Source: Candidatus Saccharimonadota bacterium
GTDB taxonomy: Bacteria; Patescibacteriota; Gracilibacteria; BD1-5; UBA2023
DNA: 32,000 bases
Reading direction: 5' to 3'
Assembly (NCBI GenBank): GCA_963706795.1
Contig: OY970170.1
Span: 990,001-1,022,000, forward strand
Shown here: in pieces, positions 5,002-32,000 of the stretch
Layout: each line of letters opens with the position of its first letter
How positions within the stretch are numbered: position 1 is the first letter of the stretch
Notes under the pieces: model-generated
The model's input: the letters and a program-made list of their open reading frames with translations, nothing else
What the model was told of the DNA's origin: nothing
Databases searched by the model: none
Position numbers and translations under genes: made by a program

Positions 5002-5871
5002 ATGCTTTTGTATCCGTCTATTTCATCCTTTATGGAGCCACAAAAAACACAATTTCTCTCCCCGCAAGAGGAGATGAGTGGAGAGAGTCTATTTAAAGAG
5101 CTCGAGAATGAGCTCGATTTTGGTGATCTCGCCAAAGACAAAGAAGATCTCGCCAACGAGAAAAAACATCCACTCCAGATCGCAACGCGAGTGACTGATA
5201 TTCTCTTTAAGGTTCTCCTCGTCGCTTCGTTTATCTTGGGAGTCGACGTCACCCTTCGTAATTTGGATGCGAGTGGTTTTTTGTCGAATCTCCCGATTTG
5301 TTCATATCTCGCCTGGGGCGTAGGGGACTATGACAATACCGAATGTAAGTTATACGTTGAGATCAAGGACAAACTTACTAAAGATCGTGCCCAATACGAA
5401 AAGGATCTCACAGTTCCGCTTGCAATCTTGGTCCCTAAAAAACTCCAATCGCAGAATGTCCTCAATTCACCCGAAGTGCAATTCATTCAACTTCACACTG
5501 CTGGACGTGTAACACTCACAAAGGTGCTTGATCAATTCAATGAAATCAAGGCCTCATCCACTATCCGCAGAGGTGAAGACATCGAATGTAAAAAACTTAC
5601 TCTCGATGAAAAGGGCATCCTCAATGTCAACTGTGACTGCTATGGATTTGGACTTAATTCTGGTACAGAAGAATCCAATACTTCGAGGTCTACAGCACTT
5701 GCACTCATCGATAAGCTCTCGGACAAAAATAGTCATTTCCAGATCGTCGAAGTCCCAAAAGCACTCGATCTCGAAAAATACTCGAGCTCAGACCTCGGTA
5801 TCAAATCAACATTTAGTACACACACCACGCTCAATCTCAAGCTTCGCTACGTAGTATCTAATAAGTCGTAA
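5002..5871 (+). CDS. Hypothetical bitopic membrane protein, first gene of the pilus-like operon (289 aa)
   Basis: ATG 5002 is preceded by AAGGAG (4987-4992). Acidic N-terminal region, one predicted TM helix (ILFKVLLVASFILGVDV), then a ~190-aa external domain. The stop is 1 nt before the next start. No recognisable motif. Confidence 0.75.
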   Translation: MLLYPSISSFMEPQKTQFLSPQEEMSGESLFKELENELDFGDLAKDKEDLANEKKHPLQIATRVTDILFKVLLVASFILGVDVTLRNLDASGFLSNLPICSYLAWGVGDYDNTECKLYVEIKDKLTKDRAQYEKDLTVPLAILVPKKLQSQNVLNSPEVQFIQLHTAGRVTLTKVLDQFNEIKASSTIRRGEDIECKKLTLDEKGILNVNCDCYGFGLNSGTEESNTSRSTALALIDKLSDKNSHFQIVEVPKALDLEKYSSSDLGIKSTFSTHTTLNLKLRYVVSNKS

Positions 5872-5872
5872 T

Positions 5873-7132
5873 ATGTACGCTCCACTCGATAAGAAAAAAC
5901 AATCTCGCCTGATCAAAAGCGTCATCCTTAATGGTATGTTCGTGGTGATTTTGAGCGCATTTCTCTGGCTCTATGTTTATGATGGCTACAGTGCGGTCGG
6001 CGCCAAAGTTGATACACTCAATGACATGGTCAAGAGCTTCAATGCTATGAAAAGCGATGGGATCGATGGCCGCAAATACCAGACCCTCATCAGCAAGCTG
6101 AACAATAATAATCGTCCCAAAGACGAAAAGGTAGACTATGACAAAATTACTGAGGTCCTCAAAAAGCCTGCAAATGTCTCAATGCCATATATGGATTGGA
6201 TCAAGTCAGAGATGACAATGGTTAGTGCGTATGACAAAATCATCGAGAATAACGCTCGTATTATTGGAAATATTCTTCCGACATTTAGTGATTCTCCGGC
6301 TGATCAGGATGATACATTCTCAAAAAATCGCATTACCCTCAAGTCGCTCGTAAAATTTGTCGAAGAACACCTCCTCAAAAAATTCAATCTTGAGAGTTAT
6401 TCTTCGGTTGGTCTCTCAAATATTGTATTTAGTACTTCACAGGTTGGAGTTGTAAATATTGGTAGCTACAAAGTGACCCTCGATATTGCGGGTACAAATA
6501 ATTCGATTCTTGCACTCCTCGATGCGATTCAGGCTTCTGGAACCCTTCCACTCAAGGATGGGAAACTCGTTGATACTGATGTTTCAACTAATTCAGGAAC
6601 GGTAGCAACTCCTGCTGCTGATACTTCGACGGATTCTGCACTTTCAAATCTGCTCATCACTGTAGATGCTGCAAAATTTGATACACCTCCTGAGCGCAAT
6701 GATAACAAAAATAAGGGTCAGCTCGTGCTTGTGCTCTACGTACGAGGAAGAAGCTATAGCGACTTCATCCAGATCCGCAATGAGCTTGCAGCCAATATCA
6801 AGACACTCAAAAAGAATATCGAAACCAATGGCGGACTCTGCAAGGATGGAAACTCTGATATTTGTAAAAACCCGATTGCCTTTGCTGCAGTGAACTCTAT
6901 CAAGAGTCTCCAAGATGACATTGGCTCGATCGATCAAAAGATGCAAGAATCTCTCAAAAGTAACACTATCCGCGATATCGGAACTGAGTTTGATACTCTC
7001 TATGGCGTGCTCACCAGCTATAACGCTATAAACGCAAACTACCAAAAGGATCTCACTGACATTACAAACGCACGTCAGGGAGGCTCGTCAGACACTCAGA
7101 CACCCGCAACCAATAGCTCTACCGCTCAATAG
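5873..7132 (+). CDS. Hypothetical bitopic membrane protein, second gene of the pilus-like operon (419 aa)
   Basis: Intact ORF with an N-terminal TM anchor (VILNGMFVVILSAFLWLYVY) and a large external domain ending in a Ser/Thr-rich tail. Ends 4 nt before pilB. No in-frame TGA. Confidence 0.8.
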   Translation: MYAPLDKKKQSRLIKSVILNGMFVVILSAFLWLYVYDGYSAVGAKVDTLNDMVKSFNAMKSDGIDGRKYQTLISKLNNNNRPKDEKVDYDKITEVLKKPANVSMPYMDWIKSEMTMVSAYDKIIENNARIIGNILPTFSDSPADQDDTFSKNRITLKSLVKFVEEHLLKKFNLESYSSVGLSNIVFSTSQVGVVNIGSYKVTLDIAGTNNSILALLDAIQASGTLPLKDGKLVDTDVSTNSGTVATPAADTSTDSALSNLLITVDAAKFDTPPERNDNKNKGQLVLVLYVRGRSYSDFIQIRNELAANIKTLKKNIETNGGLCKDGNSDICKNPIAFAAVNSIKSLQDDIGSIDQKMQESLKSNTIRDIGTEFDTLYGVLTSYNAINANYQKDLTDITNARQGGSSDTQTPATNSSTAQ

Positions 7133-7136
7133 TACC

Positions 7137-8396
7137 ATGGCTTTCCAAGCTCTCGAAGATCTCAAAAACGAAGTCTACAAAGGAGACAATGCTCAGCTCA
7201 TTTGTAATCTTATTATTTCGGCTGCCGTTTCGATGCAGGCGTCGGATATTCATATTGAGCCGCTCTCGAATTTTGTACGACTCAGATATCGTATAGACGG
7301 AGTACTCACAGAAGTTCTCGAATACCAACAGTTTCTTCACTCTCAGATTGTTGCGCGTTACAAGATCCTCGCAAATCTCAAAATCGACGAATCCCGAATG
7401 CCGCAGGATGGACGTATCTCAACAACGCTCGAAGAAAAATCACTCGATCTTCGTGTTTCGACGCTTCCTACCGTCAATGGTGAGAAAATCGTAATGCGTA
7501 TCGTCGACAAATCCAAAAAAATCCCTGAGCTCAGTGCACTCGGTATTGAGGGGCGCAACGGAGTTCTTCTCCAAAAAGCGATCAGCTTACCAAATGGTAT
7601 TATACTCACCTCAGGTCCAACCGGTTCAGGTAAGTCGACGACACTGTATGCTTGTCTCTCTAAGCTCAACAAGCCAAACGTTAATATTATGACCCTCGAA
7701 GATCCTGTCGAAAACACGATCGATGGAGTCTCACAGAGTCAGGTTTTCCCAGATATTGGTTACAATTTTGCATCCGGACTTCGCACCGCTCTCCGACAGG
7801 ATCCAGACATCATCATGGTCTGAGAAATCCGCGACAAAGAGACTATTAATATCGCTATCGAAGCTTCGCTTACGGGTCATCTCGTGCTCTCGACGATTCA
7901 TACGAATTCTGCATCTGAGACGCTCACTCGTATTCTCAATATGGGAATACCAGCATATCTCTTGCCAGCTTCGATCAACGCCATCATCGCACAGCGCCTC
8001 GTTCGCAGACTCTGTCCGCATTGCAAAAAGGCGATCAAGGCTGCAGAACTTCCACAAAAAATGCAGGCCTCACTCAAACGTGCGATTGCTCGCACCAACA
8101 AGGATGAACTCGTTAGTCGTGTAGGTATAGAAAAGCTCAAAGATCCAACCTTCTACGAGCCAGTTGGATGTAACGAATGTGGGAATACCGGCTACTCAGG
8201 ACGTGTCGGAATCTACGAAATCATGGAGATTACGAATCGCATCAAAGAAGCGATCGTCGCCGGAGAATCCAGCGTCGTCATCAATGAAATCGGTATCGAT
8301 GAAGGGATGATCTCACTCGAACAAGACGGTATCATGAAGGCACTTAATGGTGCTACTTCGCTCGAGGAAGTCTACGCAGCAGCAAAAGAAAATTAA
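7137..8396 (+). CDS. pilB: Type IV pilus / type II secretion assembly ATPase (PilB/GspE family), short form (419 aa)
   Basis: Fragments 7137-7823 and 7884-8396 share one frame. TGA 7821-7823 falls on the Gly of the conserved IIMV-G-EIRD motif. Walker A is GPTGSGKSTT; His box is LTGHLVLSTIHTN. Tetracysteine motif CPHC...CNEC is typical of PilB/GspE rather than PilT. Confidence 0.93.
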
Positions 8397-8405
8397 TACA
8401 CCAGT

Positions 8406-9548
8406 ATGGAGGATATCATCATCCAAGACACTCAATCGAGTGCCGAAGTCACCAAAAAATCATTTAGATTCTCACTCGAATCCTTTGATGCATGGCTCGT
8501 CGCTCACCAGCGAATGAAGCTCAAAGAAAAGGTGATCTTTTTCCGACTTCTTGCGACCATGGTTAATGCAGGACTTCCAGTACTCAAGTCCATCGCTATC
8601 CTCGAAAAACAAGAGCAAAATCCTGTCGTCAAAAACGTCTACAGCCGCATCATCGAATGAGTAAAGGGCGGAAAAAATCTCTCCCTCACGCTTCGTAGTT
8701 TTGATGGTACATTCTCTGATGCTGAAGCCTCCATCATCGAATCCGGAGAAAAAACCGGTAAACTCAATAACGCCCTCCTCCAGCTTGCTGATCAGGTCGA
8801 AAAGGTCGACAGTGTTACTAAAAAAATCAAAGGCGCTCTCATCTATCCTGCAGCCATTGTCATCGTCATGTTCGGATCGATCACCGTCCTCATGACACTC
8901 GTTGTTCCCAAGCTCGTTGAGATGTTTGGTGACAAAGACAAGCTTCCGGCTCTGACGCAGCTCCTGATGGCGACGAGTGATTTCTTTGTAAATTACTGGT
9001 GGGCTATGATCGGTACGATTGTCATCGCGATCGTACTCCTCGGTGTATGGCGCAAAAGTGCAGAAGGTCACTACAAATTTGACGCACTTCTCCTCAAACT
9101 CCCAATCTTTGGATCAGTGCTTCGTAAGGTAATCCTCTCAAAGTTTTCACGTGTTCTCTCCAATCTCCTCGGCAGCGGTATCTCGATCGTAGAGTCTCTT
9201 CGAATCGTCTCCGAAGTCGTCGACAACGAAGTCTATCGCCAGCGAATCCTCGCCCTCCGTGAAGACGTCAAACGCGGAGTCAAAATCGCCGAAAATCTCG
9301 AAGACGACAAACTCTTCCCAGAAATGCTCGTCCAAATGATCAAAGTCGGAGAAGAAACCGCCAAACTCGATTCTATCATCCTCAAGATCGCTGACTTCTA
9401 TGATGAAGAAGTCGACAACACGATCAATGCAATTAACAAGACGCTCGAGCCAGTGATCATCGTAACCATGGCCATCGTCATCGGTTTCATCGCCGTCGGT
9501 ATCATGCAACCAATCATGAATCTCTCAGAAACGATCGAAAACAAGTAG
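8406..9548 (+). CDS. pilC: Type IV pilus / T2SS platform protein (PilC/GspF family, 380 aa)
   Basis: Fragments 8406-8660 and 8868-9548 are joined in frame through TGA 8658-8660. Shows the duplicated GspF-type pattern (FFRLLATMVNAGLPVLKSI... and FSRVLSNLLGSGISIVESL...) with three TM segments. Stop is TAG 9546-9548. Confidence 0.93.
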
Positions 9549-9556
9549 TGTCCCAT

Positions 9557-9601
9557 AAAAAATTCCCCTCCAAAGCTTTGTGCAAAGGAGGGGAATTTTT
9601 A
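9557..9601. terminator. Bidirectional terminator hairpin between pilC and the convergent pilin gene
   Basis: Perfect 13-bp stem, aaaattcccctcc (9559-9571) pairing with ggaggggaatttt (9587-9599), with an A run on one side and a T run on the other. The pilin stop codon (9599-9601) sits at its edge. Confidence 0.75.
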
Positions 9602-10759
9602 TGGAGCGATGCAGATTTTGCAGGATATATTAGAACTCGTACTTGGCTGTCCTGCATTGTGAGAGCAGGCTCCCGCTGAAGCTGCACCAGATGCAGCAAT
9701 CGTTTTTGTAGATGATTGCCAGCCGGCCGGACACGCAGTCATAACCACTTCTGTTCCTGATGGGAGTAATCCTGCAGCTTGTGTACGGCAGGCAAGACAT
9801 GCTGTGCCGCTACTGCAAGCCACTGTTTGAGGTAAGCCTAACGCTACAGTACTATTCGGTGAACTAATGGATCATGTTGGACAAGATGCTCATGCAATCA
9901 AATAATCTACTCATACGGGCACTGTACTATTTGGTTTCGCACTACAGACTTTTGCTAATCAGGTTGTCGAAAAGCCGATTCCAGGCGCTCCACTTAAAAT
10001 CGCATTTGTCGTCGAAACTGACCATCCCTTCGGGCAATCTGCCATGACGACTTCCATGATCCCTTTGTAATTCATTTCGAGTCCTCAGAGCGCTCCAGTG
10101 CTGGTGGAGATATTTGCGATAAACGTCTTGTTATCGAGGATGGCCATAATTGCCCCTGTATTTACCTGTACATCTACTTGTGTGACTGTTGAAGCATTAT
10201 ATGTCTCTTGTATTGGCTGATTGAGAGTCGAGCCTGTGATAGTTCCGACGAGTATTCCAAGCTGCGCTCATCGAGTGAGTGGCACTCGAGTATCATAGTT
10301 TGCAGCGTATGCCTGTGGTATGACAGAGCTCATCGCTGTTACTCCATTGGTATTTTCGAGAAGTGCGAGAATCTGGTATGTACTGCCGCTCGTGTCCGTG
10401 CTGTAGGTGTAGTACTGATTGTCCGTCGGATCCATCCCTTTGCCCCCAAATCAGATAAATCCGAGTAGATTTTTACCTGCATATCATTGTGCACCGATCG
10501 CTGCGCCTGAGGCAGTAATCGTAATTACATTCGCATCCGGTTGAGGTAGTGAAATTCCTGTGGTAATCTGTGCTTCAAGTGCAACTCAGATCGAGGCAAG
10601 ATCGCTTGATCTCGTGCTGTCTCGCGCACTGCTCGAATATCCTTGGAGCGACAAAAATCCAATCGTCCCCAAAATCGCAAGAATCGTAATCACCACAATG
10701 AGCTCAACAAGTGTGAAGGCTGCAGATCCAGAGTAACTTTTGTCTCTATTTCGCATCAT
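9599..10759 (-). CDS. Large type IV pilin-like protein with a Cys-rich C-terminal module (386 aa)
   Basis: Hand translation of the - strand from ATG 10759 to TAA 9599-9601 is open when nine in-frame TGA codons are read as sense. The N-terminus MMRNRDKSYSGSAA-FTLVELIVVITILAILGTIGF is a class III (prepilin) signal with the conserved Glu at +5. A pilin-core-like YYTYSTDTSGSTYQILALLEN follows. The last ~150 aa carry 10 Cys. Confidence 0.85.
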
Positions 10760-10781
10760 AAGGAGGAAGAAAATAACGCGA

Positions 10782-10811
10782 ATATTATGGGATTTTTAAA
10801 ATGGGAAGCAA
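10782..10811 (-). promoter_or_regulatory. Candidate sigma70-type promoter for the pilin gene
   Basis: On the - strand: TTGCTT (10811-10806), an 18-nt spacer, then TAATAT (10787-10782), about 22 nt upstream of the ATG. Each hexamer matches consensus at only 4 of 6 positions. Confidence 0.25.
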
Positions 10812-10816
10812 ACAAT

Positions 10817-10845
10817 AAATACGCCCCGAAATTTGGGGCGTATTT
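10817..10845. terminator. Terminator hairpin downstream of the 10865-11485 gene
   Basis: Perfect 11-bp stem, aaatacgcccc pairing with ggggcgtattt, around a 7-nt loop with A/T-rich flanks. Lies 20 nt after the TAA at 10865-10867 of the - strand gene and insulates it from the pilin promoter region. Confidence 0.7.
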
Positions 10846-10864
10846 ATATTTAAATTTTCTTAGT

Positions 10865-11485
10865 TTATGCAACAGAGAGCCCTCCGAGAGCTTCTCCATT
10901 TGGTGGATCTTTTTGGATGTGCTCCTTGACCATGGCAAGTCGGACATTACGCTGCTCATTCATTTTTTCGAGTGCAAGCTTTTGTCGAGCATCTGCCATC
11001 TCTTTATGAAATCTCTGAAGCTGTTCTTTTGAGCGTTGAGCTTCTGTCTCGGCAGTAGCTGATTCTTGAGCTTTTTGCGCTCCTTTTGGGCCCTCGATAC
11101 TGCCTTGGAGACTCTCGAGTCAGGCTGTCAATTGGTGGTAGATCTTGATAAGAGCTTCTCGTTTTTCTTCGGGTTTTGATTCACTCTGGAGGATCGCACT
11201 TTTTTCTGCATCAAATTCCTTCGTGAGCTTTTCAGCACCTTCATCAAAGGTTTTTTTGTCCTCTGGAGCGAGAGAAGTACTGAGATTGGTCATGCTCGTC
11301 TCAACCATCTTCTTCAAGAGGGTATCTGTTTGAGAGTCTTTTCATTCTGTTTTACCGCTTTTGCTCAGCTCTTTTTCGAAGTCTGCATTGTCCTTGTTGA
11401 GCTCTTTGTCAGCTGTATCAAGGGTATTGTCTGGCTGATCAAGACCAACTTTGTCAGCCTCTTTTGTATTGAGTTTTTCTAGCAT
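10865..11485 (-). CDS. Hypothetical acidic, helix-rich protein (206 aa)
   Basis: ATG 11485 (MLEKLNTKEADK...). Fragments 11342-11485, 11120-11317 and the tail down to TAA 10865-10867 share one frame through TGA codons at 11342-11344 and 11120-11122. Lys/Glu/Gln-rich, with no TM segment or signal peptide. Confidence 0.7.
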
Positions 11486-11590
11486 AGGGTGGGGGTTTTC
11501 GATATTTTGCCCTAAAGAACGCTGAGATGCAAAAGTTCGATATATGATTCTCTTCGCTTTGCATATACTCTGTGTAACTAATCCCTCTCT

Positions 11591-12277
11591 ATGGCTACAC
11601 AAAAAAATACACCCAAGAGTAAACCGATCGTCGGAGCGATTATATTTCTCGTGGTGATCGTGCTCCTTGGGTACTACGCACTCTCGAACAATACGCCCAA
11701 AAAACCAGTTTGGAACGAAAATGACCGTAAGGTCACGCAAACGGGTACAACTACATCAGATACCTCTACTGGAGATACCACTCCTCCTGCTACAGATTCT
11801 GGAAGCATGACTCCTCCGCCTCCTGATGCCATCGTCAATACGCCGGCTGGTCGCGATGCACGCGACTCTGATCCTCTAGTGAATCCTCCGCCAGTAGTTG
11901 CTACAAACACGGGTACAATTACGAGTACGGGCACTACCTCATCGGGTGTAACCGAATACTGGAATGAATCACTTGGCTACGGATTTTCAGTACCCAAGGG
12001 TACGTACTACCTCGGTACAGGTCCTCGTGATGAGGCAGCTCATAGCGTAGCGCTTCGTGTAGGAACGGGGGCAACCGACTTTGAGAGCGCGGAGGTTCGA
12101 GTCTGGTACTATCCAAGAAAACTCCTCCAGCAGCTTGCAGAAGGGGAGAATGGATTCTATCAAGATGCGAATACTTCTCGCACATATATGAAGTTCGGAT
12201 CTGGAACTCTTGTTATTGGCGGAACATTCGATAGCTCAGTCGTGAAGACCATCATCCAAACAGCAAAAGTTCGCTAA
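11591..12277 (+). CDS. Hypothetical membrane-anchored protein with a Thr/Pro-rich linker (228 aa)
   Basis: Intact ORF. N-terminal TM anchor (IVGAIIFLVVIVLLGYYAL), a T/S/P-rich spacer, and a ~110-aa C-terminal globular region. TATACT lies 22 nt upstream of the ATG. Stop is TAA. Confidence 0.8.
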   Translation: MATQKNTPKSKPIVGAIIFLVVIVLLGYYALSNNTPKKPVWNENDRKVTQTGTTTSDTSTGDTTPPATDSGSMTPPPPDAIVNTPAGRDARDSDPLVNPPPVVATNTGTITSTGTTSSGVTEYWNESLGYGFSVPKGTYYLGTGPRDEAAHSVALRVGTGATDFESAEVRVWYYPRKLLQQLAEGENGFYQDANTSRTYMKFGSGTLVIGGTFDSSVVKTIIQTAKVR

Positions 12278-12280
12278 ACA

Positions 12281-12309
12281 AAAAAAGAGTCAGCAATGAC
12301 TCTTTTTTT
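12281..12309 (+). terminator. Rho-independent terminator after 11591-12277
   Basis: Stem agagtca (12286-12292) pairs with tgactct (12297-12303) around a gcaa loop. Flanked by an A run and a 7-T run. Confidence 0.7.
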
Positions 12310-12336
12310 AGGCTTCAATTTGCGCCATATTTCAGG

Positions 12337-12438
12337 ATGAACGTGGATAGTATGTGGTTTTCGAAACCGACTCACTGTGCGTCTCTGAGGTGCCCTCTGC
12401 TTTTGTCGGTAAGAAATACACATACTATCCACGTTCAT
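12337..12438. repeat. Hairpin A: 102-nt element closed by a perfect 20-bp inverted repeat (candidate structured RNA or repeat element)
   Basis: atgaacgtggatagtatgtg (12337-12356) is the exact reverse complement of cacatactatccacgttcat (12419-12438). The 62-nt interior pairs further (accgac 12365-12370 with gtcggt 12405-12410). Confidence 0.85.
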
Positions 12439-12464
12439 TATCGCCATACGACCTTTCATCGAAT

Positions 12465-12567
12465 GAAACCTCATAGAATATATCTTTTTCATTCAATCAA
12501 AGCCAGTGCGCACCTAGAATTCACCAAGGCTGCTTGAATTTCAAAAACATATATTCTATGAGGTTTC
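12465..12567. repeat. Hairpin B: 103-nt element closed by a perfect 19-bp inverted repeat (candidate structured RNA or repeat element)
   Basis: gaaacctcatagaatatat (12465-12483) is the exact reverse complement of atatattctatgaggtttc (12549-12567). The interior pairs further (ttttt/aaaaa, attcaa/ttgaat, gcc/ggc) around an apical GTGCGCAC palindrome. Confidence 0.85.
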
Positions 12568-12591
12568 TGGGAAGTTTCGAGACTGAGAAGT

Positions 12592-13260
12592 TTAGAAGCA
12601 TACCACAAACTCGCCCTTCATCGGATGAGTTTTAAAATGCTCGCGAACCTCGGTAGTAGTTCCGCGTACGAATTCTTCGAATTTTTTAGTGAGTTCACGT
12701 CCCACTACGATCTGGTGTTCAGACCCAAAATATTCCTCGAGTTCGGCGAGAGTTTTCTCAATGCGGTGGACGCTCTCGTAGATCACAACTGTATGATCTT
12801 TGTTTTGAAGGCTTTCAAAGAGGGTTTTGCGTCCTTTTTTGATCGGTAAAAACCCGAGATATGTAAAGTGGTGTGTCTGAAGGCCCGAGCAAATAAGTGC
12901 CGAAAGCACAGCCGAAGCTCCAGGAATAGGGCAGAGGGTGATCCCTGCTTCGATTGCTTTGCGTACAAGTGAGTAGGCTGGATCTGATATCCCTGGAGTT
13001 CCTGCATCTGAGATGAGGGCGATATTTGCGCCTTCTTCTAAGAGCTTAATAATCGCATCCTCTTTACCTGCACCCGTATGCGAATGGAACGAAATCGTCT
13101 TCTTGCCCGTAATTTCATAATGTTTGAGAAGAATCCCTGAAGTGCGAGTATCCTCACAGGCAATATAATCCGCCTCGCGCAATGTGCGAAGTGCTCGAAG
13201 TGTGATATCTTCGAGGTTCCCGATGGGTGTAGAGACGAGATAGAGGATTCCTGATGCCAT
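12592..13260 (-). CDS. rsmI: 16S rRNA (cytidine1402-2'-O)-methyltransferase RsmI
   Basis: Intact ORF. LYLVSTPIGNLEDITLRALRTLREADYIACEDTR, SDAGTPGISDPG-like motif (SDAGTPGISDPAY) and ESVHRI are typical of the tetrapyrrole-methylase-fold RsmI family. ATG 13260 (alternative TTG 13269). Stop is TAA 12592-12594. Confidence 0.93.
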   Translation of the reverse strand: MASGILYLVSTPIGNLEDITLRALRTLREADYIACEDTRTSGILLKHYEITGKKTISFHSHTGAGKEDAIIKLLEEGANIALISDAGTPGISDPAYSLVRKAIEAGITLCPIPGASAVLSALICSGLQTHHFTYLGFLPIKKGRKTLFESLQNKDHTVVIYESVHRIEKTLAELEEYFGSEHQIVVGRELTKKFEEFVRGTTTEVREHFKTHPMKGEFVVCF

Positions 13261-14301: not shown

Positions 14302-15699
14302 TTATAGTCCGAGTTTGTCGCGGATAACATTCACTTCGTAGAAGAGATTTTGGTCCTTTTTGAGGATGGATTCGAGCTTGCGGCAAGAGTAGAGAACTGC
14401 TGAGTGATTGCGCCCTGAGAAGATATTTCCAATTCGCTCGTAAGTGAAATGGAGTTTATTCTTGAGGAGGTACATTGCAACCTGACGCGGGATCATGTGC
14501 TCCTTGCGGCGGTCTTCTCCGAGGATAGCCTTCTTGTCGATGCCAAAGTGCGAGCTAACAGCTTCTACGAGCTCATCATAGCTCTTGGTGGCAGTTTTTT
14601 TGTTGCGGTGTGAGACGAGTGTATCGGTAACTCCGAGGCGATTCATACGCGCTCCAACATTGTCTATAGTAGGAGGTGTATTGTGGAGTTCGTATTCTGC
14701 AATGATCTGGTTGAGGATTCCTTCGAGTTCGCGGACGTTTGATACTGCGTTATATGCAATGAATTCAGCGACTTCCTGCGGCAAGATAAACTCTCGTGCG
14801 CGGGCTTTTTCTTGGAGGATGGCGAGGCGAGTCTCAAAATCAGGTGCTCCGATATCTACGATGATACCCCACTCAAATCGACTCTTGAGTCGTGGCTCGA
14901 TTTCTTCGAGCTCACGAGGTGCACGATCTCCGGAGAGGATAATCTGCTTACCTGACTCATACATCACATTAAATATGTTGTAGAGCTCGTCCTGTGTGCG
15001 TTCTTTTTTAGCGAGGAACTGGATATCGTCGATGATGAGGACATCGATTCCGCGATATTTTTCGCGCATTTTGTCTGTTGTGCGTTTTTTTACAGAGTCG
15101 ACATAGTCTGTAATAAAACGATCGGCAGTTGTATAGATGACTTTCTTATCCTTAAATCGTGCTTTAACAGCGTTACCGGTAGCTTGGAGGAGGTGAGTTT
15201 TCCCGAGTCCAACTTCTCCATAGATATAGAGTGGATTGTACGCAGATCCTGGCTTGCGAGAGACTGCTTCGCACGCAGCGAATGGGAGCTGGTTTGCGGG
15301 TCCTACGATAAAATTCTCGAGGCGATATTTTTCGCTGATGAGGCGAGCATTGATTCCGCCGACTTCGTTTTCGACTGCAACTTCTTCTTTCGTCTTGGTA
15401 GTGAGGCCCTTGTATTCTTTGGCGCAATCTACAACCAAGAGATTAGAGGGATTCTCAATAGTGGTATCTACTACAAATCCAACGGTTGTGACTTCTGGAA
15501 TGCATGACTGTGCAGCGGCGAGGATTTCAGCATCGAATTTATGGAGATTGTCTCGCATAAATGCTGATTCTACACCGAGTACCAATCGTCCTTCTGCAAA
15601 CTCGACAAATGACAACTTTTTAAAGAAAGTCAGGAAGTCCTGCTTGCGAACCTTGGAGGCGATGTGGCGTACGATATCTCGAAGCGTCTGAAGTTCCAT
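14302..15699 (-). CDS. dnaA: Chromosomal replication initiator DnaA (465 aa)
   Basis: Intact ORF. AAA+ Walker A GEVGLGKTHLL, Walker B VLIIDDIQFL, sensor motifs, and the C-terminal DNA-binding domain (RQVAMYLLK...FSGRNHSAVLYSCRK). No in-frame TGA. Confidence 0.98.
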   Translation of the reverse strand: MELQTLRDIVRHIASKVRKQDFLTFFKKLSFVEFAEGRLVLGVESAFMRDNLHKFDAEILAAAQSCIPEVTTVGFVVDTTIENPSNLLVVDCAKEYKGLTTKTKEEVAVENEVGGINARLISEKYRLENFIVGPANQLPFAACEAVSRKPGSAYNPLYIYGEVGLGKTHLLQATGNAVKARFKDKKVIYTTADRFITDYVDSVKKRTTDKMREKYRGIDVLIIDDIQFLAKKERTQDELYNIFNVMYESGKQIILSGDRAPRELEEIEPRLKSRFEWGIIVDIGAPDFETRLAILQEKARAREFILPQEVAEFIAYNAVSNVRELEGILNQIIAEYELHNTPPTIDNVGARMNRLGVTDTLVSHRNKKTATKSYDELVEAVSSHFGIDKKAILGEDRRKEHMIPRQVAMYLLKNKLHFTYERIGNIFSGRNHSAVLYSCRKLESILKKDQNLFYEVNVIRDKLGL

Positions 15700-16040
15700 G
15701 TACTAAGGAGAGAAAATGGACTCTAAAAATGTCCAGTAAGGTGTATCCGTTTCAAGGTTGATGTCAAAAATTAAAACACGCTTGACGCGTATTTCTGTAT
15801 AACTTTTTTATACGACCAACTGGCTGGCTTCCTGTTGGGGAAAGCTCAGGTCCTGCAAAATCTAAGTTGAGAATAGTTTTTAACAATTTCGCAACTCAAA
15901 ATTATCTTTTGTTCGGCCTTCTTTTTATATCATTCAGAACGCGATTTTTCAGCAAGGAAAGAATGTGTTTGTTGGATTCTTTTCTCTCGTTTTTTGAGAA
16001 GGGGAGTCTACTGATTTTTTGGAGATTTGAAAGCGAGAAT
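15700..16040. other. Non-coding region upstream of dnaA; candidate replication origin / dnaA promoter region
   Basis: A 341-nt gap with no credible ORF in a window that otherwise has 0-20 nt gaps. Contains A/T-rich stretches (for example 15870-15950). Only degenerate DnaA-box-like 9-mers are present, with no perfect TTATCCACA. Confidence 0.3.
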
Positions 16041-16295
16041 TTATCCTAAAACGCTCTTTATTTCGGTTTGTACCAGCTGGATCACACCTTCGATATTTTT
16101 GGGTGAAATTTCTTTGATTCCTTCTTTTCTGTCATCAACGAGTGCACAGATTTTACGCTGTGTTTCATTGGTGAGACCATTCGTTAGTCAGTGCACAGGA
16201 AGTACGAAGCTTGGATAACCTGCAGTTTTGAGTGCAAACTCGAGTGTGTGTGGATTTACCGAAAGCGTGTCTTGTGATGATACCGTGGTAGTCAT
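16041..16295 (-). CDS. Hypothetical small protein (84 aa)
   Basis: ATG 16295, one in-frame TGA (16188-16190), TAA 16041-16043. The C-terminal half (ETQRKICALVDDRKEGIKEISPKNIEGVIQLVQTEIKSVLG) looks protein-like. The N-terminal half overlaps DnaA-box-like 9-mers, so the call is tentative. Confidence 0.55.
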
Positions 16296-16362
16296 GGGAT
16301 ACTGGATAATGGATATTTCCCGTATACGTGAACAGTGGTGACTATATGATGTCTGCTTCGTT

Positions 16363-16701
16363 CTAATTACGTCTTTTTTTGAGGGCAACGACTTCTGCAC
16401 GAGTATCTCGGGCTTGCGAGTGGACTTCGGCAAGAAGTGCTTCAAATTCGGGGATGTTTTTGAGTTTTTGGTGGAGACTTAGTTTCTTTTCGGCGTTTTC
16501 GGGTGTGATGCGTCATTCGAGAATATCCTCGATATATTTGAGCACAAAAACCTGGAGCATCTCGTGATCAGCATGCGTACCACTCGGAATATGCTCGATG
16601 ATTTCTTCTACGCGCTTGGCGTATTTTTTGATGATATCTGCATGAACCACCTCGTGATTCAAATCATGGATTTTGTGTACCATAGGAAGTGGAGTAAACA
16701 A
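16363..16701 (-). CDS. Hypothetical His-rich protein (about 112 aa)
   Basis: TTG 16701 is preceded by GAGGAA (alternative ATG 16683). ORF 16513-16701 continues in frame through TGA 16513-16515 to TAG 16363-16365. No recognisable motif. Confidence 0.65.
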
Positions 16702-16804
16702 ATAATTCCTCGCCGATCTCAGGCCACCTTACTAGATAATGCCCGCTTTTTCAAGATAAAAAGTGTGGTTTCGTACTTTGGAATGTAGATGTTTCTTTTG
16801 TCGA

Positions 16805-20145: not shown

Positions 20146-22326
20146 ATGAGTAGTTCTCTTAAGATTTTATCCGCTTCTCGTAATTGAGGGGCGGATTCTC
20201 GCGAATTATTCATCACTGCATCGCTCATGGGCTACTACGTCAGTCTCTATGCCTTCTCAACTATATTCGCACTGTTTTGAGGAGCGATGGTTTTCCGTAA
20301 ATATCGCAATCCTTCAGGGCTTTTCTTCCTGTTGTTTTCGTTTTTTGCGTGTGCGTGGTTTATTCTCTATTTCCTGTTTTTTTCAGGTATTCCGAACAAG
20401 GATTGGCTGCTGATGATCTCGCGTTTGGACTTCGCAATCGGGATTTTGGGTGTGTACAGTTTGTTAGGCTTTATCTACTTTTTTAATACGAAGCCGTCGA
20501 AACTCTTTGTGAAAGAAGTTCTTTGGATACTTGGATGGATGCTTTCGGTGCTGGCCTTTTATGTATTTACCAAAGGTATCATCGCGGGACTTTATTACGA
20601 AGCGAGTGAAAAAGTATTCCGAGAAATCCCTGGTAAGGTCTTTGCTCTGCATATCGCGCTCCATGCAACCTGTGTATTTTTGTTTTGTTATTTTTCATTT
20701 AAGCAGCTCAAAAAACAAACCTATCTCAATCGCATCCGTCTCAAGCATATCCTGACATCAGCATTTATGCTGGTGTTATTTTTGATTGTTTTCCAGCTCA
20801 TTTTACCTTCTTTTGGTATCTGGATTCTCGAAAAAGAAGTCGTGTTCTCGCTCGCGATTTTTGTCCTCTATATCTATCTTACGATCAATCGTTATTACTT
20901 CTCCCGTGGCTTTGGTATGGGGAAGGCTTCGGTAACAGTACTCTCGGCAGTCCTCTGAGTCTTGCTCTTTGAGCTGATCAAACAAGGATATTTTCCGATT
21001 TATTGAAATCTCCTCGCAAATTATTGGAATCTCACGGATGAGTATTCGATATTGGACCCCGCTCTCGCGATCATCTTCTTTATATTTGTGCATTTCGTAC
21101 TGCGTAAGACACTTCTCGGGAGTACGTACCGACAAGATCTCAAAAAGAAAATGCAGGATATCCACAGAAGTATTTCGCACGCGACTTCTCTTGAGCGTCT
21201 CAATGACTACATCCACATGGGTATCAGAAAGGTCTTTAAGACAACCTTTTCAGAAGTGCGTGTCTTTGTAGATGAGGCTGAAAAGACTGAACTCCAGAGC
21301 TTTTTTGAGTACTTTCCGGACAAGATATTTATTAATGATTTCGTATTTATCGAAGAAAATAAATCTAAATTCGACCGCAAAAAACTCCTTGCCGAAATCC
21401 CAGAAGAAGCCTTTCTCGTACTGCCATTCTTTAATAAAGAGTGAGATGTGTGTACTGGCGTGCTTATTGCAGGTAACAAACTCTTCTGAGATTTTTATAA
21501 CTCCGACGAGATCGAAACCCTCAGGGATTTTTCGTTTGGACTTGGACTTCATATCAAATATATCAAGACATACGGACAAATCCGCGATCTCTCGATTAAT
21601 CTCGATAAAAAAGTCGACCAAAAAACCATGGAGTTCAACAACCTTATCAATCAACAAAAAGAATTCATCAGTGTGATTTCCCATGAGATTAAGTCGCCGA
21701 TTGCGAGTGCGATTTTTCAGGCAGATAGCATGCTCGATGATCTCGCTAATGATGAACTGCCACCAGAATTACTCAAAAAAGAGCTCGATCTCCTTAATAG
21801 TCAGCTCATCAAGACCTGAGAACTCATCTCTACACTCTTCTCTGTGCAGTATTTTGATATCCACTCTGTTTCACTTTTTCGCGAAAATGTGCAAATTAGT
21901 TATTTATTACAGACAGAATATGAAGTATACTCTCGCATGCATGGACATATACAGTTCATGAATGAGATCAGTGATAAGATTGGATTTGCTTCCGTCGATC
22001 GTATCCAGCTGCAGCAGGTTGTTGCCAACCTCCTGAATAATGCAGTCAAATTCATCGACAAACAAGACCCGATTATTCTCGTAAAAGCGGGCAAAAAAGG
22101 CGGATTCATAACGATCACGATCGAAGACAACGGACGTGGATTTCAGTGAATTAACGTAGCGCAACTTTTTGAGAAATATACAACATTCGGAGGAGGCGAA
22201 TCGACGGGTCTCTGAATGGGGCTCTATCTCTGTAAAAAGATAGTTGAAATGCACGGATGAGAAATCACCGCAGGGAATTCCCAAAGATTGTGAGGCGCCG
22301 AATTCACTATCAGGATCCCTGTATAG
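20146..22326 (+). CDS. Multi-pass membrane sensor histidine kinase (726 aa)
   Basis: Five track fragments (20287-20958, 21052-21444, 21628-21819, 21844-22149 and linkers) share frame 1 and are joined by eleven TGA codons. About 8-9 N-terminal TM helices. HisKA H-box is SVISHEIKSPI. HATPase N box is NLLNNAVKF; G1 is DNGRGF. The G2 box TGL-G(TGA 22213)-MGL and MHG-G(TGA 22258)-EI place TGA on canonical Gly. Stop is TAG 22324-22326. The start could instead be ATG 20287. Confidence 0.9.
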
Positions 22327-23844: not shown

Positions 23845-26223
23845 CTATGTGTTTTCTTCTTGCGGATGAGCAACAAGTGGAATAGTAAAATGAAAATTTG
23901 ATCCCATTCACAAGCGGCTTTCTACCTCGATGCGTCCACCCATCTGACTGACGATTTCCTGAGAAATAGCGAGTCATAGTCCGCTTCACATATGTGTCCT
24001 CGTAAAGACATTATCAAGCTGAGAAAATTTTGAAAATATTTTTTTGGTGCCTTCTATATTCATACCGATACCAGTATCGATGACTTCTACTTTGAAGGTT
24101 TCTTTGTTTACTTGGGTTGATCGGACAGTGACGGTTCATCCGCGGGGTGTGAATTTAATAGCATTTCAGATGAGATTGACGAGCACTTGTTTGAGGAGAT
24201 TGGGGTCGGTCGTGATCGCTATGGATTCGTCTGTTTCGAATAGAAAATCAAGTCCGGCTCGCTCTGCAATATTGTCGTACTCGTATTTGATCTCTGCTAA
24301 AAATGTTTGTAGATGGATGGTGCTATTCTCGAATTCCATTTTGCGAGACTCGAGTTTGGCGATATTGAGCATGTCATTGACGAGTTTGATGAGGCGATTA
24401 CTTGAGTCAAACATCACCTCGAGTGGCTTATACATAGGCTCGGCGAGCTCTCAAAAATCTCCTTCGAGCAACATGGATGCGTAACCCTTGATTGAGGTCA
24501 AGGGAGTGCGAAGCTCATGCGAAGCAATATTGATAAAATCATCCTTAAGCGCATTGAGATCCTCAAGGTGTTTGCGTTCTTTTTCGAGGGTACGATATGC
24601 TCGGAGGTCCGTCATCATACCGACACTTCAAGCACTTCCAAGGGGTATTCCGGTGAGTCGGACAGGGATAATTTCACCATCTTTTGCGAGGAGTTCTACT
24701 TCGTATTCGGTTTTTGCGCCCTCGCGCCTGAGAGTAATATTGTCCTCGAGTGATTTTCGGCTTTGCGGTGTAAAAAAATCAAATGACTTCTTGCCAATAG
24801 CTTCTTCGGGTGTGTATTTGGAGAGTTCTGTGAATAGACGATTGACAGATACAGTCGTCTCATCGATATTGCCCATCCAAATCGCCACTGACGAATTATC
24901 GATGATATCTTTGTAGGATTCGGTATACCACTGATGGGTTTTATTGATTTCTTCAACCTTGCTCTTTATATCTATTTGGAGCGACTTATTGAAGTCTTCT
25001 AGCTCTGTCGAGGTCACATTTACGAGATGTAGCAGTGCCTGAATCGTGTCGAGATATCTGCGATTTTTACTCGAAATAAACGGAATGGGCGAGATATGAG
25101 ATCGTTTGTTTTCTTCTGCGTGCTCAGTGAGTCCGAGTACAGTCATCGTTTGATTGAGAAATTCATTGTGCTTGTTCGCATGAAAAAACTCACCATATGT
25201 AAAAAATCCACTTGTGGCTGCAATCATTTCAAGGGGCTGCATCTCGAGTGAGATATGTTCCTGCAAAAATCTGCGCCTCGCCATGCACGAATAAATAAAA
25301 AATGTCTCCATCGTGATATCCTGAAATCGCTCATACATTTTATGAGAAGTTTCTAGGACAAGACGAGCATCGCCAAGTCCAAATTGCACAACTGCTCATT
25401 CGTGAATATTGCCTCAAAATGAGAGCGAGCCATCAGGGTGTTTGGTGAGTGGAGCGCGTGCCACCCTTTGTCCATTCTTTAAAATAATCAGCGGAAACTC
25501 GATACCGATAGCCGGAAGTCTCTCGGCGGTTTCGTTGCCAAAGTATTTTCTGTAGATCTCGGTGGTCGGAATTCCGTCGATCTCATAAACACGATTGCGG
25601 TCAGATTTGGTGATGGTGAGTTTTTTGCCGATACTGATCCAATCAAAGGCGTAGTCACTTTTTACTGTCAGATGTTTACTCTCGAGCGCTGCTCACACGA
25701 TCCCTGTAGTCGAGAGAATTTCTTCTGTAAAAATATATGTCCCAATAAAGGTTCCATTGTCTCCTGCGAGTCCACCAGCAATGACGATGTCGGGATTGAT
25801 GCTCTCGATTCATTTGAGGAGTTCTTCTCCATTGGTGTGAAGTCACTCGCCAAAGAGAATGAGGACTTTGGTGTCGGATTTGCAAATAGCTTTGGTAATT
25901 GCAACTCCTGCTAAAAAGCTGTCGGTTGCAGCATCGGCAATATGTTCGGTCGTAATTTTTGTATTTTCAAAAACACTTATCGAAATCAGGACGCTACCGG
26001 TTGCGACATTGCCGCGGTTAATCTCGCCGTCAGTGGTTGCGCCGATGATCTTTGCAGAGGGGAGAAGTCCTTTGATTTGCATACGAAGATCCTCTAAAAA
26101 AACTCGATCCAAAATCCCCGAAAATACCTGTACCAAGACATTTGGTTCCTCCGAAAAATGGTTGTCTGTTGCAAATGCTTGGAGCTCTTCACGAGAGGTA
26201 TACGTCAGAGTTTTGGTATACAT
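23845..26223 (-). CDS. Cytoplasmic FIST-PAS sensor histidine kinase (792 aa)
   Basis: Track fragments 25843-26223, 24628-25389 and 24166-24435, plus linkers, form one frame with twelve TGA codons. The N-terminal ~400 aa resemble FIST_N/FIST_C (IIGATTDGEI, IAGGLAGDN, EFPLII). A PAS-like segment follows (SVNRLFTELSKYTPEEAIGK). H-box is IASHELRTPL, N box NLI-G-NAIKFT, G1 DTGIGM, G2 M-G-SGL-G-LAIS (TGA 23986 and 23974). Stop is TAG 23845-23847. Confidence 0.9.
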
Positions 26224-29600: not shown

Positions 29601-32000
29601 CTACGGAATTTTAGGAATTCTTGCTTCAAAATTTTGGATTGCAGCTCTCATCTGAAGCTGAATAGCTTTGTTTAAAACGCTATCGGAAAGAAATGATCTG
29701 AAATATGTGATCATCTCATGAATATCGAATGATTCCTCGTGAAACATTAAATGCTTGATAAGCATTTCTATGACATAACCGTGATCATCTTCTCTTCAGT
29801 TATGAGTCTCTAGTAGTGTTTTTATGAGATTGCGTGTCTCCTGGATAGTGAAATGACAAGCCTCGAGGTTCTTGGGCGATCTGAGGTATCGTATTGTATT
29901 AGTGAGATTCTCTCCGGAAGTTACTATATCAATAATCTCATGTGCGGTATAATCACGCCGAGGTTCGGGTAATTTTTTGTTTATAGGGGTATCGATGTGG
30001 CTTTGATGCACTGATGACGCATCAGTGAAATATAGCTCATTGTACATCTCAGGTGTGAGATATACAATAGCAGATTTCCCTGTGTCCTCACGATTGTATA
30101 CGAATACATATTTTCGCTCTTGTCCATCAAATCAAAGCAAATTTAAGAAAAACGAGCCTCTTCAGAAAATTTGGGGCGTTTTCAATTGTCGCACATCGTC
30201 TACATGGACTGGCAATGCGATTGAACCAGTCATGAGATCTTGTAGGATTGATAGATCTCATTTACTTTTTCAGTAAGTGACTGATCTTGATAGATAGGTG
30301 GGTTTTTCCTGGTTAATGGCAACTTCAAGATATCCCTGAGGAGCTATTGTGGCATCTCTCGCTCAGAGTGTTATGTGATTGCTCAAGCTAGTGGCATCAG
30401 GAGACACCTTTACTCCCGAGGAACAGCTGGGAAACCAAGCATTTACGTCGAAGGGTTCATGCTTTTTGTTTGCTCGTTCTTTTGAAATTCCTGACCACTG
30501 TATGCTTTTTTGATGAGATGGAAGTATGCTTCGACTTGCATATAATAGCCCCTCTCAGAGTCCAGTAAACTGATGACCTCATAAACGATTCTCATTCCAG
30601 TATGACAAAGAAATCCTGTTAATCATTGGTGCGTATTCTTCTGCCAATGATACCTTGCCCTTGGGAACAGCTGTTGATATATATGGAGCTCTTCCTGTAA
30701 TTGTTACTATAAGGCTATGTAGGTCGAAATAATGAAGTGCCTCTTCTCAGATTTTTCCCTCCCAGTCGAGTGGATCGGAGCCGAGATATAATGTGGGTTG
30801 AAAATCCCTGCCATACGATGCTGCTAAAAGCAGTATGTCAGAGATAGAAAAATGACTCAGATCTTTTGATTTTTTGCGCGACGGCTCAAGGGAGCAAAAT
30901 GCACACCCAACACTACATCCGTTAGATAATTCAAGCCAGTGGATGTTTTTTAAAAGAGCATCGCCTGTTTGGCGTGACTTTGTGGTATTAAAAATCGAAT
31001 GACTGAAATCGGGTCTTTGCTTTAGCGTATCTTGAAGTATTTGAATGACAGGCTCAGCGCTTAATAAGGACAAAAAAGCTATTCTATCTTTTTGGGGAAT
31101 ATCCCTAAAAATTTGCACCAATTGGGCTATCAATTTTTGACTATCGTCTCATTTTTCAATTGCATCTGTGACCTCCTGATAGGGAATACGGTCATTCTTG
31201 ATTTTATAACTCAAAAGAAGCTTGTTTCTCGAAACGATTACAGATTCTGGAATATCGCTCGACTGATTTCAATAGTAAAAATGAGTTAAAAAGTCAAAAG
31301 TGAGCAATTTCGCCTCTACAATAGGTGAAATGAGTGTCTCAGTGAACAACTTTTCTCTCAGAAAATCCCCGTCTATATCAGGGAAGCTGTCAATTATTCA
31401 ACAAATGAATTTTACAACGTCTGGATGACAAGAAGATCCATCTTTTTCCTTTGTTTTAAGGCTTTCTAGTAATATCTTTTTTTGAGAATCTTGTTTTGTG
31501 CTTGTGTAAGAAAGCGATCGATCTCACAGGGGGTATCCTGTCATCTCTTTAGATGGGATATCTTTTCGGTATATATGTCAGAGAGAGTAGGCTGGTGGAG
31601 TATTAGTGACACTGGGGGCATTCATCTGTGCGAGTATTGCATCGACCGACAGTCTTAAATCATCTGGGGTATCCCGTCTTGCTGTCACCTTTCGTTCTTG
31701 TTGGGCTACTGAGTATTCTGCTGGGATATCCCTTTTTTTCTTTTGCCTCGGGGTTTTTTCTCATAGTAAAATACGCTCAACTGCACCAGATGAATTCATA
31801 CATACTTTCATAACTCCCTCCCGAAAGTCGAGAAAATTAATATCAGACAATGTAGCCTCCTGAGGAGTTCATCATTCAAAAAACTCTACCCTTGTGCTTA
31901 TGGGGCAAGAAATGGGTTTTTCATTTACAGGGAAGGATACTATCCCTGCTGGATGATTCGTTGAGGACCATGTCGGCACAGAAGTGGAAACGATAGATTC
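29601..32000 (-). CDS. Large protein with a radical-SAM-type core (at least 799 aa; N-terminus outside the window)
   Basis: By hand translation, one - strand frame is free of TAA/TAG from base 32000 down to TAG 29601-29603. It contains at least 17 in-frame TGA codons. It has LELSNG-C-SVG-C-AF-C-SLE (CxxxCxxC, about 30895-30920) followed by YLGSDPLDWEG (GGEPL-like). The ~350 aa upstream and ~380 aa downstream of the core have no motif I recognise. Confidence 0.7.

Follow-up and report, generated by a model that had tools for sequence, protein, structure and literature searches.

An 801-residue protein encoded with TGA as glycine carries the core of a rare radical-SAM family most similar to proteusin epimerases

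Peptide epimerases are used in natural-product engineering. Proteusin epimerases such as OspD operate with no auxiliary cluster: a Cα hydrogen atom is abstracted, and the radical is quenched by a conserved cysteine (PMC13012085). In PoyD, Cys372 is the conserved cysteine that quenches the Cα radical (PMC8326336). Here we describe a gene at the end of a 32,000-nucleotide stretch of a Candidatus Saccharimonadota bacterium (contig OY970170.1, positions 990,001 to 1,022,000; referred to below as the window). The explanation that we favor, with about as much confidence as doubt, is that a single gene read in genetic code 25 encodes an 801-residue protein whose central ~210 to 290 residues form a radical S-adenosylmethionine (radical-SAM) domain nearest to the PoyD and OspD epimerases and may use an epimerase-type mechanism. 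The protein falls within a well-known superfamily and is most like the proteusin epimerases, yet it fails their family threshold, lacks their N-terminal region, and shows nothing of their genomic setting in the surrounding sequence known so far.

The window uses genetic code 25, in which TGA encodes glycine, as used by Gracilibacteria and Absconditabacteria (SR1). When only TAA and TAG were treated as stops, the window proved to be densely packed with ordinary bacterial genes, among them FtsZ, a DinG-like helicase, PilB, PilC, a pilin-like protein, DnaA, a DEAD-box helicase, two histidine kinases, three response regulators, and an esterase with an SLH domain. All 22 genes end in TAA or TAG, and tryptophan is encoded separately by TGG. 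TGA codons stand at an invariant glycine of PilB (DPDIIMV-[TGA]-EIRD), at invariant glycines in the boxes of two histidine kinases (GL-[TGA]-MGL, HG-[TGA]-E, and M-[TGA]-SGL-[TGA]-LAI), at the motif VI glycine of the DinG-like helicase (Q-[TGA]-IGRLIR), and at the RGxGY glycine of a response regulator (R-[TGA]-EGY); example loci are 7137-8396, 20146-22326, 23845-26223, and 2271-4988. Since TGA falls on conserved-glycine positions, TGA as tryptophan (code 4) was rejected.

Residues are numbered below by the open reading frame (ORF) within the window (minus strand, 799 codons), with "aa n" denoting its nth residue; numbering in the database protein P0032 is 2 higher. From 32000 to 29604 on the minus strand, the frame comprises 799 sense codons with neither TAA nor TAG and closes with a TAG stop at 29601-29603. 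It contains exactly 17 in-frame TGA codons. Read with the standard code (table 11), it stays open for at most 133 consecutive codons (aa 285-417), and the largest ORF that can be called from it has 128 aa. Given the base composition of the region, the probability of encountering no TAA or TAG over 799 codons is ~4e-17, and across 300 shuffled versions of the window the longest run without TAA or TAG was 209 codons on average and 360 at most. These values bear out an initial annotation made from the sequence, which described a minus-strand frame free of TAA and TAG across 2.4 kb, with at least 17 TGA codons, broken by the standard code into pieces of at most 128 aa and very unlikely to arise by chance. 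The argument from length is weaker than it had seemed, however, given the antisense frames of this window. Frames opposite real genes lack TAA and TAG for 438 to 680 codons (7590-9629, 1-1770, and 5861-7174, all on the minus strand); the genes that they oppose are PilB/PilC (the 680-codon frame, 7590-9629), FtsZ, and the gene at 5873-7132. Because such frames stay open, frame length by itself is no proof of coding. The coding status of the target frame was settled instead by the homology described below; on the plus strand, no competing ORF was seen opposite the frame.

The start of the gene lies just outside the window. A Logan assembly contig (L042) matches 12,400 nt of the window at 100% identity and reaches 203 nt past base 32000. 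The window ends at L042 position 204, and an ATG at L042 198-200 is six bases outside the window, preceded 16 codons upstream by an in-frame TAA. The protein is therefore 801 aa long, and the window is short of it by only two codons (Met-Pro); use of a TTG two codons earlier as the start would give 803 aa. Thus, sequence beyond base 32000, which the initial annotation had proposed to obtain, supplied the start, and the N terminus that it had called incomplete lacked only these two residues. Upstream of the ATG, L042 holds 197 noncoding nt. A promoter-like site (TTGAAT-17-TATGAT) is found ~50 nt upstream of the ATG, but such sites are no commoner here than in shuffled sequence.

Public collections hold this protein in three forms, which belong to one 90% identity cluster. 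P0032, the 801-aa translation from L042, consists of "MP" plus the window ORF, with tryptophan written at all 17 TGA positions. P0001 is a 123-aa standard-code fragment, 99% identical to the query (window 30747-31118, minus strand), and P0031 is a fragment corresponding to the last 54 residues of the protein (window 29601-29765, minus strand); both come from a 1,267,896-bp NCBI/ENA contig whose genes were called with the standard code.

The decisive comparison is with P0002, an 807-aa protein encoded on a 487-kb ENA scaffold with a guanine-plus-cytosine (GC) content of 36.5%, all of whose genes are full of TGA. The P0002 gene itself contains 25 TGA codons. The two proteins align end to end, from residue 2 to the C terminus, with few gaps (blastp E value of 8e-175; 39 to 41% identity). 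Profiled in 40-residue windows, identity is 25 to 30% over the N-terminal 340 aa, 52 to 62% over aa 361-640, and 25 to 47% over the C-terminal 160 aa. Eight of the 17 target TGA codons pair with tryptophans of P0002, presumed to be TGA codons misread by the gene caller, and 16 P0002 tryptophans pair with glycines of the target encoded by GGN or TGA, while all six true tryptophans in the alignment pair with tryptophan. The statement that the gene makes sense only when TGA is read through, as in table 25, is thus upheld both by the glycines of the window and by this alignment. In our judgment this is almost certainly a single intact gene read in code 25. The full-length architecture is known from these two organisms only.

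By sequence, the central region of the protein belongs to a rare, unnamed radical-SAM family. The cluster motif LELSNGCSVGCAFCSLE stands at aa 357-373 (LELSNG-CSVGCAFC-SLE), with Cys362, Cys366, and Cys369 arranged as CxxxCxxC and an aromatic residue, Phe368, before the third cysteine (C362-SVG-C366-AF-C369); YLGSDPLDWEG follows at aa 405-415. Both motifs had been pointed out in the initial annotation, as had the lack of a SPASM-like cysteine cluster downstream. Only two cysteines, C526 and C715, come after the cluster motif, so the protein has no SPASM or twitch cysteine cluster; in agreement, Pfam and NCBIfam scans of the target gave no match to a SPASM domain.

With the stop-free stretch aa 285-417 as the query, a full HMMER search of 1.84 billion representative proteins returned 16 matches with shared motifs; P0032, carrying tryptophan for TGA, was used for later searches and modeling. 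The other matches, P0003 to P0016 (120 to 724 aa), and P0017 to P0022, which were found with the family profile, have a core of ~210 residues in common, and in the recoded relatives similarity reaches ~290; two TGA-recoded relatives, P0006 and P0007, share the region aa 479-635. Five motifs recur: L-x-L-x-x-GC-S-x-GC-x-FC; LY-x-x-SDP(L/F)DW; P-x-x-STAVPKGKE; R-(I/V)-S-x-S-x-x-N-x-x-RL; and I-G-C-x-x-G-V-x-x-x-P-x-G-x-x-N, followed by P-x-G. The three cluster cysteines are invariant in the family, together with a Tyr, an Asp, a Thr, a Pro, a Ser, an Asn, and an Arg, and all of these residues are intact in the target.

We consider it very probable that the target is a radical-SAM enzyme. The assignment is transitive: three homologues, P0008 (31.1 bits), P0012 (34.8 bits), and P0013 (31.9 bits), pass the 29.5-bit gathering threshold of the Pfam Radical_SAM family PF04055 (profile positions 1-115 of 166), and the family profile matches PoyD-type enzymes. 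It is via these homologues that the CxxxCxxC region aligns to the superfamily, the target itself being below the threshold. With the superfamily the target shares the cluster loop and, in the predicted structure, the four initial beta-alpha units, whereas the classic GGE is replaced by SDPLDW; at this beta-2 position the family conserves LY-x-x-SDPLDW, which matches the TDPFDN of PoyD-like enzymes and not the canonical GGE. Family members span 315 to 807 aa and have variable, unrelated flanks, so the earlier view that the size of the protein is atypical was overstated.

NCBIfam TIGR04517 (rSAM_PoyD) was the sole curated family matched significantly by the target or its relatives, with family E values of 1e-6 to 5e-14. 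To compare the two groups directly, we used a reference alignment of eight true TIGR04517 members (P0023 to P0030). The hhalign comparison of the family with the PoyD-like alignment gave a probability of 99.2% and an E value of 9e-20 (5e-19 in a second run) over 193 to 194 columns, corresponding to aa 349-561 of the window ORF. FPS-C526-SSGV was paired with TIA-C-xSGF, and PQGY was paired with PLGY. The target and the PoyD/OspD-type epimerases have in common a single CxxxCxΦC motif with no SPASM or twitch auxiliary cluster, a core of ~195 aligned columns, (S/T)DP(L/F)D after beta-2, a T-rich strand (STAVP versus TTTA), R(I/F)S-L-S, a conserved cysteine in I-x-C-x-x-G, and P(Q/L)GY. The match begins at column 159 of the 496-column PoyD-like template, and the N-terminal 345 aa of the target match nothing; the ~345-aa and ~165-aa flanks of the target are present in no PoyD-like protein. 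The eight PoyD-like sequences contain two invariant noncluster cysteines, "TIAC" and "SPC," 19 residues apart. As a separate observation on the reference set, the N termini of P0023 and P0025 (residues ~48 to 90) match NHLP-type precursor-peptide models below the cutoffs (NF038399, 28.6 and 24 bits versus 40; TIGR04509, 23.4 and 21.9 bits versus 34), as if these epimerases carried a leader-like segment.

Searches of the PDB with sequences and profiles gave weak cluster-loop matches only (SkfB, YydG/EpeE, and RimO). The best sequence matches of the family profile were SkfB (6efn; E value of 0.0024) and EpeE/YydG (8ai1 to 8ai6; E value of 0.018). Both are peptide-acting SPASM/twitch enzymes, and the match is limited to ~30 to 45 residues around the cluster loop; unlike the target, they carry auxiliary Fe-S clusters in Cys-rich C-terminal domains. 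A match to IspF (E value of 0.16) from the PDB search was rejected as spurious.

Two AlphaFold models were built, one for the archaeal homologue P0013 from an 18-sequence alignment and one for full-length P0032, with tryptophan at the 17 TGA positions. The P0013 model has a mean predicted local distance difference test (pLDDT) value of 70, exceeding 85 in the core, and consists of four beta-alpha units followed by beta-hairpins. The full-length model has a mean pLDDT value of 58. Its N-terminal ~170 residues are unmodeled; residues 175-353 are helical (pLDDT of 55 to 95), 355-480 form the core (80 to 94), 481-682 are poor, with some beta-strands, and 683-797 form a helical bundle (70 to 87). 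Foldseek comparison with the PDB returned no match better than an E value of 0.2 for either model, radical-SAM structures included, among weak TIM-barrel noise. Thus, of the table 25 translation with hidden Markov model (HMM) and structure searches that had been proposed, the HMM route led to the radical-SAM family, and Foldseek placed neither the barrel of the core nor the flanks.

Neither the N-terminal ~345 aa nor the C-terminal ~165 aa matched anything in Pfam, NCBIfam, or PADLOC. Flank HMMs built from the target and P0002 showed no similarity to the flanks of other members, the single exception being P0006, which has a counterpart of the last ~60 N-terminal residues; other members, 315 to 724 aa long, carry unrelated extensions of their own. 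The initial annotation was therefore right that the flanks match no family, and wrong about the extent of the C-terminal one, which covers ~165 aa and not ~380 because the core reaches aa 561-635. It had also suggested a novel fusion enzyme, which is unproven: the flanks are conserved only in P0002, match no known domain, and give no sign of a separate origin. The features of the gene are collected in Table 1.

Table 1. Features of the radical-SAM gene, in window coordinates
Feature	Position	Strand	Remarks
Coding sequence, radical-SAM protein	29601..32000	-	799 of 801 codons plus TAG; ATG and Pro codon lie past window end
N-terminal region	31491..32000	-	aa 1-170; conserved in P0002 only (~25-30%, including PTWSSxNH and DINF); pLDDT <50; no known domain
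Predicted all-helical region before core	30948..31484	-	aa 173-351; pLDDT 55-95; last ~60 residues common to P0006 (E 1e-6)
Radical-SAM core, four beta-alpha units with cluster loop and family motifs	30567..30944	-	aa 353-478; AlphaFold pLDDT 80-94, alignments
CSVGCAFC	30894..30917	-	Cys362/Cys366/Cys369, presumed [4Fe-4S] ligands; three Cys invariant in all 15-20 family sequences
SDPLDW	30762..30779	-	aa 408-413; at position of "GGE" SAM-binding strand; Tyr405 and Asp412 invariant; TDPFDN in PoyD-like enzymes
STAVPKGK family motif	30654..30677	-	aa 442-449; Thr and Pro invariant
RISLSYWNENRL family motif	30582..30617	-	aa 462-473; Ser, Asn, and Arg invariant
FPSCSSGV	30411..30434	-	aa 523-530; Cys526 is nearly invariant fourth family cysteine (>=90% conserved) and candidate H-atom donor
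PQGY	30330..30341	-	aa 554-557; aligned with PLGY of PoyD-like enzymes, near end (aa 561) of PoyD-homologous stretch
Beta-rich second half of conserved region	30096..30566	-	aa 479-635; 52-62% identity to P0002; also in P0006 and P0007; mostly low-confidence model
C-terminal helical bundle	29616..29960	-	aa 681-795; conserved in P0002 only; includes Cys715; pLDDT 70-87; no known domain, no fold match

To place the family, we considered where it occurs and what surrounds it. Its hosts comprise the code-25 bacterium, a Peregrinibacteria metagenome-assembled genome (MAG), a Woesearchaeota MAG, another archaeal contig, and Desulfobacteraceae. Scans of representative genomes from 185,579 GTDB species (with the single protein), of 241 million JGI metagenome records (with the protein and the alignment), and of IMG/VR viral contigs (with the alignment) did not recover the full-length architecture, and neither the 799-aa protein nor the target-P0002 alignment matched anything in a word-indexed search of 5.8 billion proteins. 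In GTDB genomes, only the core motif retrieved relatives, all of them remote. PADLOC defense models gave no match, and literature searches returned no description of the radical-SAM family of the target.

Downstream of the target in the window lies the convergent SLH-domain esterase gene, its stop 16 nt from that of the target, and no precursor-peptide gene was found downstream of the target within the window. The P0002 gene (L043 10001-12424) is preceded on the same strand, across a 345-nt gap, by a metal-homeostasis-like cluster (L043 534-9655) in the order Fur, CobW, CooC-like ATPase, ornithine-decarboxylase-like, PALP, RcnA-like, CobW, and ZIP. The Fur regulator was called in L044; the two CobW genes encode COG0523 GTPases, and the ATPase is of the CooC/MinD type. 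The RcnA-like membrane protein at this locus carries the motif HGLLPGHSK, and next after the P0002 gene comes a 117-aa ORF. Elsewhere, the P0007 gene follows gyrB, the Peregrinibacteria homologue follows clpB, the Woesearchaeota homologue adjoins lonB, and P0013 is surrounded by archaeal ribosomal-protein and tRNA-synthetase genes. Contexts thus vary between relatives, and none is a strong functional clue.

Two further loci were recorded. At one locus, that of P0014 (724 aa), a pair of genes resembling MbnB/TglH (DUF692) and HvfC/MbnC lies 2 kb downstream (L046 12249-13836); MbnB/HvfC pairs are typical of peptide-modifying systems. A remote subfamily of ~550-aa proteins (GCSNYCRRC ... GASDPLDWE ... 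TKVPKGKE) was present in at least 30 Desulfobacteraceae MAGs (loci L008 to L041, e.g., L029, L040, and L011); at 16 to 18 of 20 loci, its gene lies on the same strand a few kilobases downstream of a DsrMKJOP-like set, usually directly after it.

From the hhalign match and the conserved-cysteine chemistry of proteusin epimerases, we propose an epimerase-type mechanism. Cys362, Cys366, and Cys369 would bind a [4Fe-4S] cluster; reductive cleavage of S-adenosylmethionine by this cluster would yield a 5'-deoxyadenosyl radical, which would take a hydrogen atom from its substrate, a peptide or a protein. Following the precedent of PoyD and OspD, Cys526 would then return a hydrogen atom to the opposite face, converting an L-residue to its D form. 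The ~345-aa N-terminal and ~165-aa C-terminal regions, which are lineage specific, presumably select the substrate or a partner. The steps differ in standing. The gene probably encodes a radical-SAM enzyme whose substrate is a peptide or protein, and possibly that enzyme is an epimerase; taken by itself, the case for a peptide or protein as the substrate is evenly balanced, and epimerization specifically, for which PoyD and OspD serve as the analogy, is a tentative assignment to which we give well under even chances.

Several observations weigh against this explanation. On PF04055, the target scores 14.5 bits against the gathering threshold of 29.5 (E value of 0.042; aa 357-417). Its TIGR04517 score is 27.8 bits over 30 residues against a cutoff of 325 bits for a 446-position model; relatives score 22 to 52 bits, and true members (P0023 to P0030) score 458 to 482. 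Identity of the target to PoyD-like sequences is only ~20%, the PoyD N-terminal region (model positions 1 to ~100) is missing from it, and, as noted above, Foldseek did not recover radical-SAM structures. The cysteine argument is also incomplete. The family keeps the TIAC-type cysteine and has no "SPC," and PoyD Cys372 could belong to either column, as the alignment does not assign it; furthermore, the candidate donor is absent from P0005 and from P0022, the representative of the Desulfobacteraceae subfamily. No precursor peptide or conserved partner gene was found beside any relative examined, which argues against a classical pathway for ribosomally synthesized and posttranslationally modified peptides (RiPPs). 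Neighbors are instead housekeeping genes, such as those for ClpB, GyrB, LonB, and tRNA synthetases, and the NHLP or Nif11 precursor genes and RiPP clusters of PoyD/OspD-type enzymes are not near any of these relatives. Finally, the codon-usage log-likelihood of the target, -0.08, is the best of its own six frames and the lowest of all window genes (0.2 to 0.5 for the other, core genes), and TGA supplies 17 of its 43 glycines (40%) versus 11% in core genes of the window.

Part of this evidence can be read in favor of the same gene and radical-SAM family with a chemistry other than epimerization or a substrate other than a peptide, such as C-C or C-S bond formation, methylation-independent hydrogen abstraction on a small molecule, or maturation of a cofactor or metal center. 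We regard this as a credible alternative, though well short of an even prospect. It draws on the remoteness of the PoyD-like similarity, with HMM scores far under the cutoff, on the lack of RiPP-type neighborhoods, on the position of P0002 directly after the metal-homeostasis-like cluster, and on the Desulfobacteraceae subfamily, which follows DsrMKJOP-like genes and whose representative has no candidate donor cysteine. Nevertheless, no curated family other than the epimerases shows significant similarity, and the PoyD alignment extends well past the generic cluster loop to include the conserved cysteine and P(Q/L)GY; the variation in gene context among relatives further limits what the metal and DsrMKJOP-like neighbors can say. 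A bolder version of the epimerase proposal, which we think unlikely, is that the target and its relatives in the code-25 bacterium, Peregrinibacteria, and Woesearchaeota constitute an unrecognized clade of stand-alone PoyD-like enzymes in ultrasmall symbionts and predators, modifying full-length cellular or surface proteins. The housekeeping setting and the missing precursor peptide would then point to D-amino acids, or another radical modification, in ordinary proteins rather than RiPPs, and the large lineage-specific flanks would be a substrate-recognition module.

The remaining alternatives concern the gene itself. That two or three genes or translation units share the frame, as the initial annotation had allowed, would account for the unequal conservation relative to P0002 (flanks of 25 to 30%, core of 52 to 62%) and for the unrelated flanks of other family members, but TAA and TAG are the only stops of code 25 and neither occurs within 801 codons, and P0002 is collinear over both domain junctions, with no gaps there and almost none from residue 2 to its C terminus. 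On these grounds the several-gene reading was rejected; moreover, no Met lies near the N-terminal junction (Met residues are at 64, 68, 126, 153, 459, 590, and so on), and gene calling done independently yielded one product of 801 aa. We consider this division of the frame very improbable. Still less probable, in our view, is that the frame is a decaying or nonfunctional remnant, or that it stays open by chance or as an antisense "shadow" in a recoded genome. The low codon-usage score fits such a frame, as do the near-random frequency of TGA (17 observed versus 13.4 expected) and the shadow frames of up to 680 codons elsewhere in the window. Against it, the target has no competing plus-strand ORF, keeps 39 to 41% protein identity over 800 aa to an orthologue from a genome of very different GC content, retains every family-invariant residue, and has no frameshifts. 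We therefore retain the reading of one intact code-25 gene.

Other observations concern the window as a whole. No tRNA or rRNA genes were found in its 32,000 nt, and Rfam matched nothing in the window or in the upstream regions. The core genes FtsZ and DnaA contain zero TGA codons, and less-conserved window genes contain 1 to 2%. The cumulative GC skew has its minimum near 11 to 13 kb (11000-13000), which suggests that a replication origin lies within the window or close to it. Next to dnaA (14302-15699, minus strand) is a gap of ~1.1 kb devoid of long ORFs (15700-16804), but TTATCCACA-like DnaA boxes show no enrichment (6 versus 6.3 expected). Between the pilin-like gene and the gene at 11591-12277, the region 10525-11590 holds overlapping TAA/TAG-free ORFs on both strands, none of which is clearly a gene (10787-11482 on the plus strand, rich in Phe, Leu, and Cys; 10525-11388 and 10865-11485 on the minus strand).

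This locus is a concrete case of protein diversity hidden by an alternative genetic code: a public protein collection presents the 801-aa enzyme as fragments of 123 and 54 aa and as one version with tryptophan at 17 TGA codons. Uncharacterized radical-SAM families are very common, which tempers the claim. The analysis nonetheless defines a rare, unannotated family whose nearest relatives are peptide epimerases and which is found away from any RiPP cluster, in organisms whose genomes are minimal. It raises the testable possibility that ordinary proteins of these organisms may undergo radical epimerization or another radical modification.

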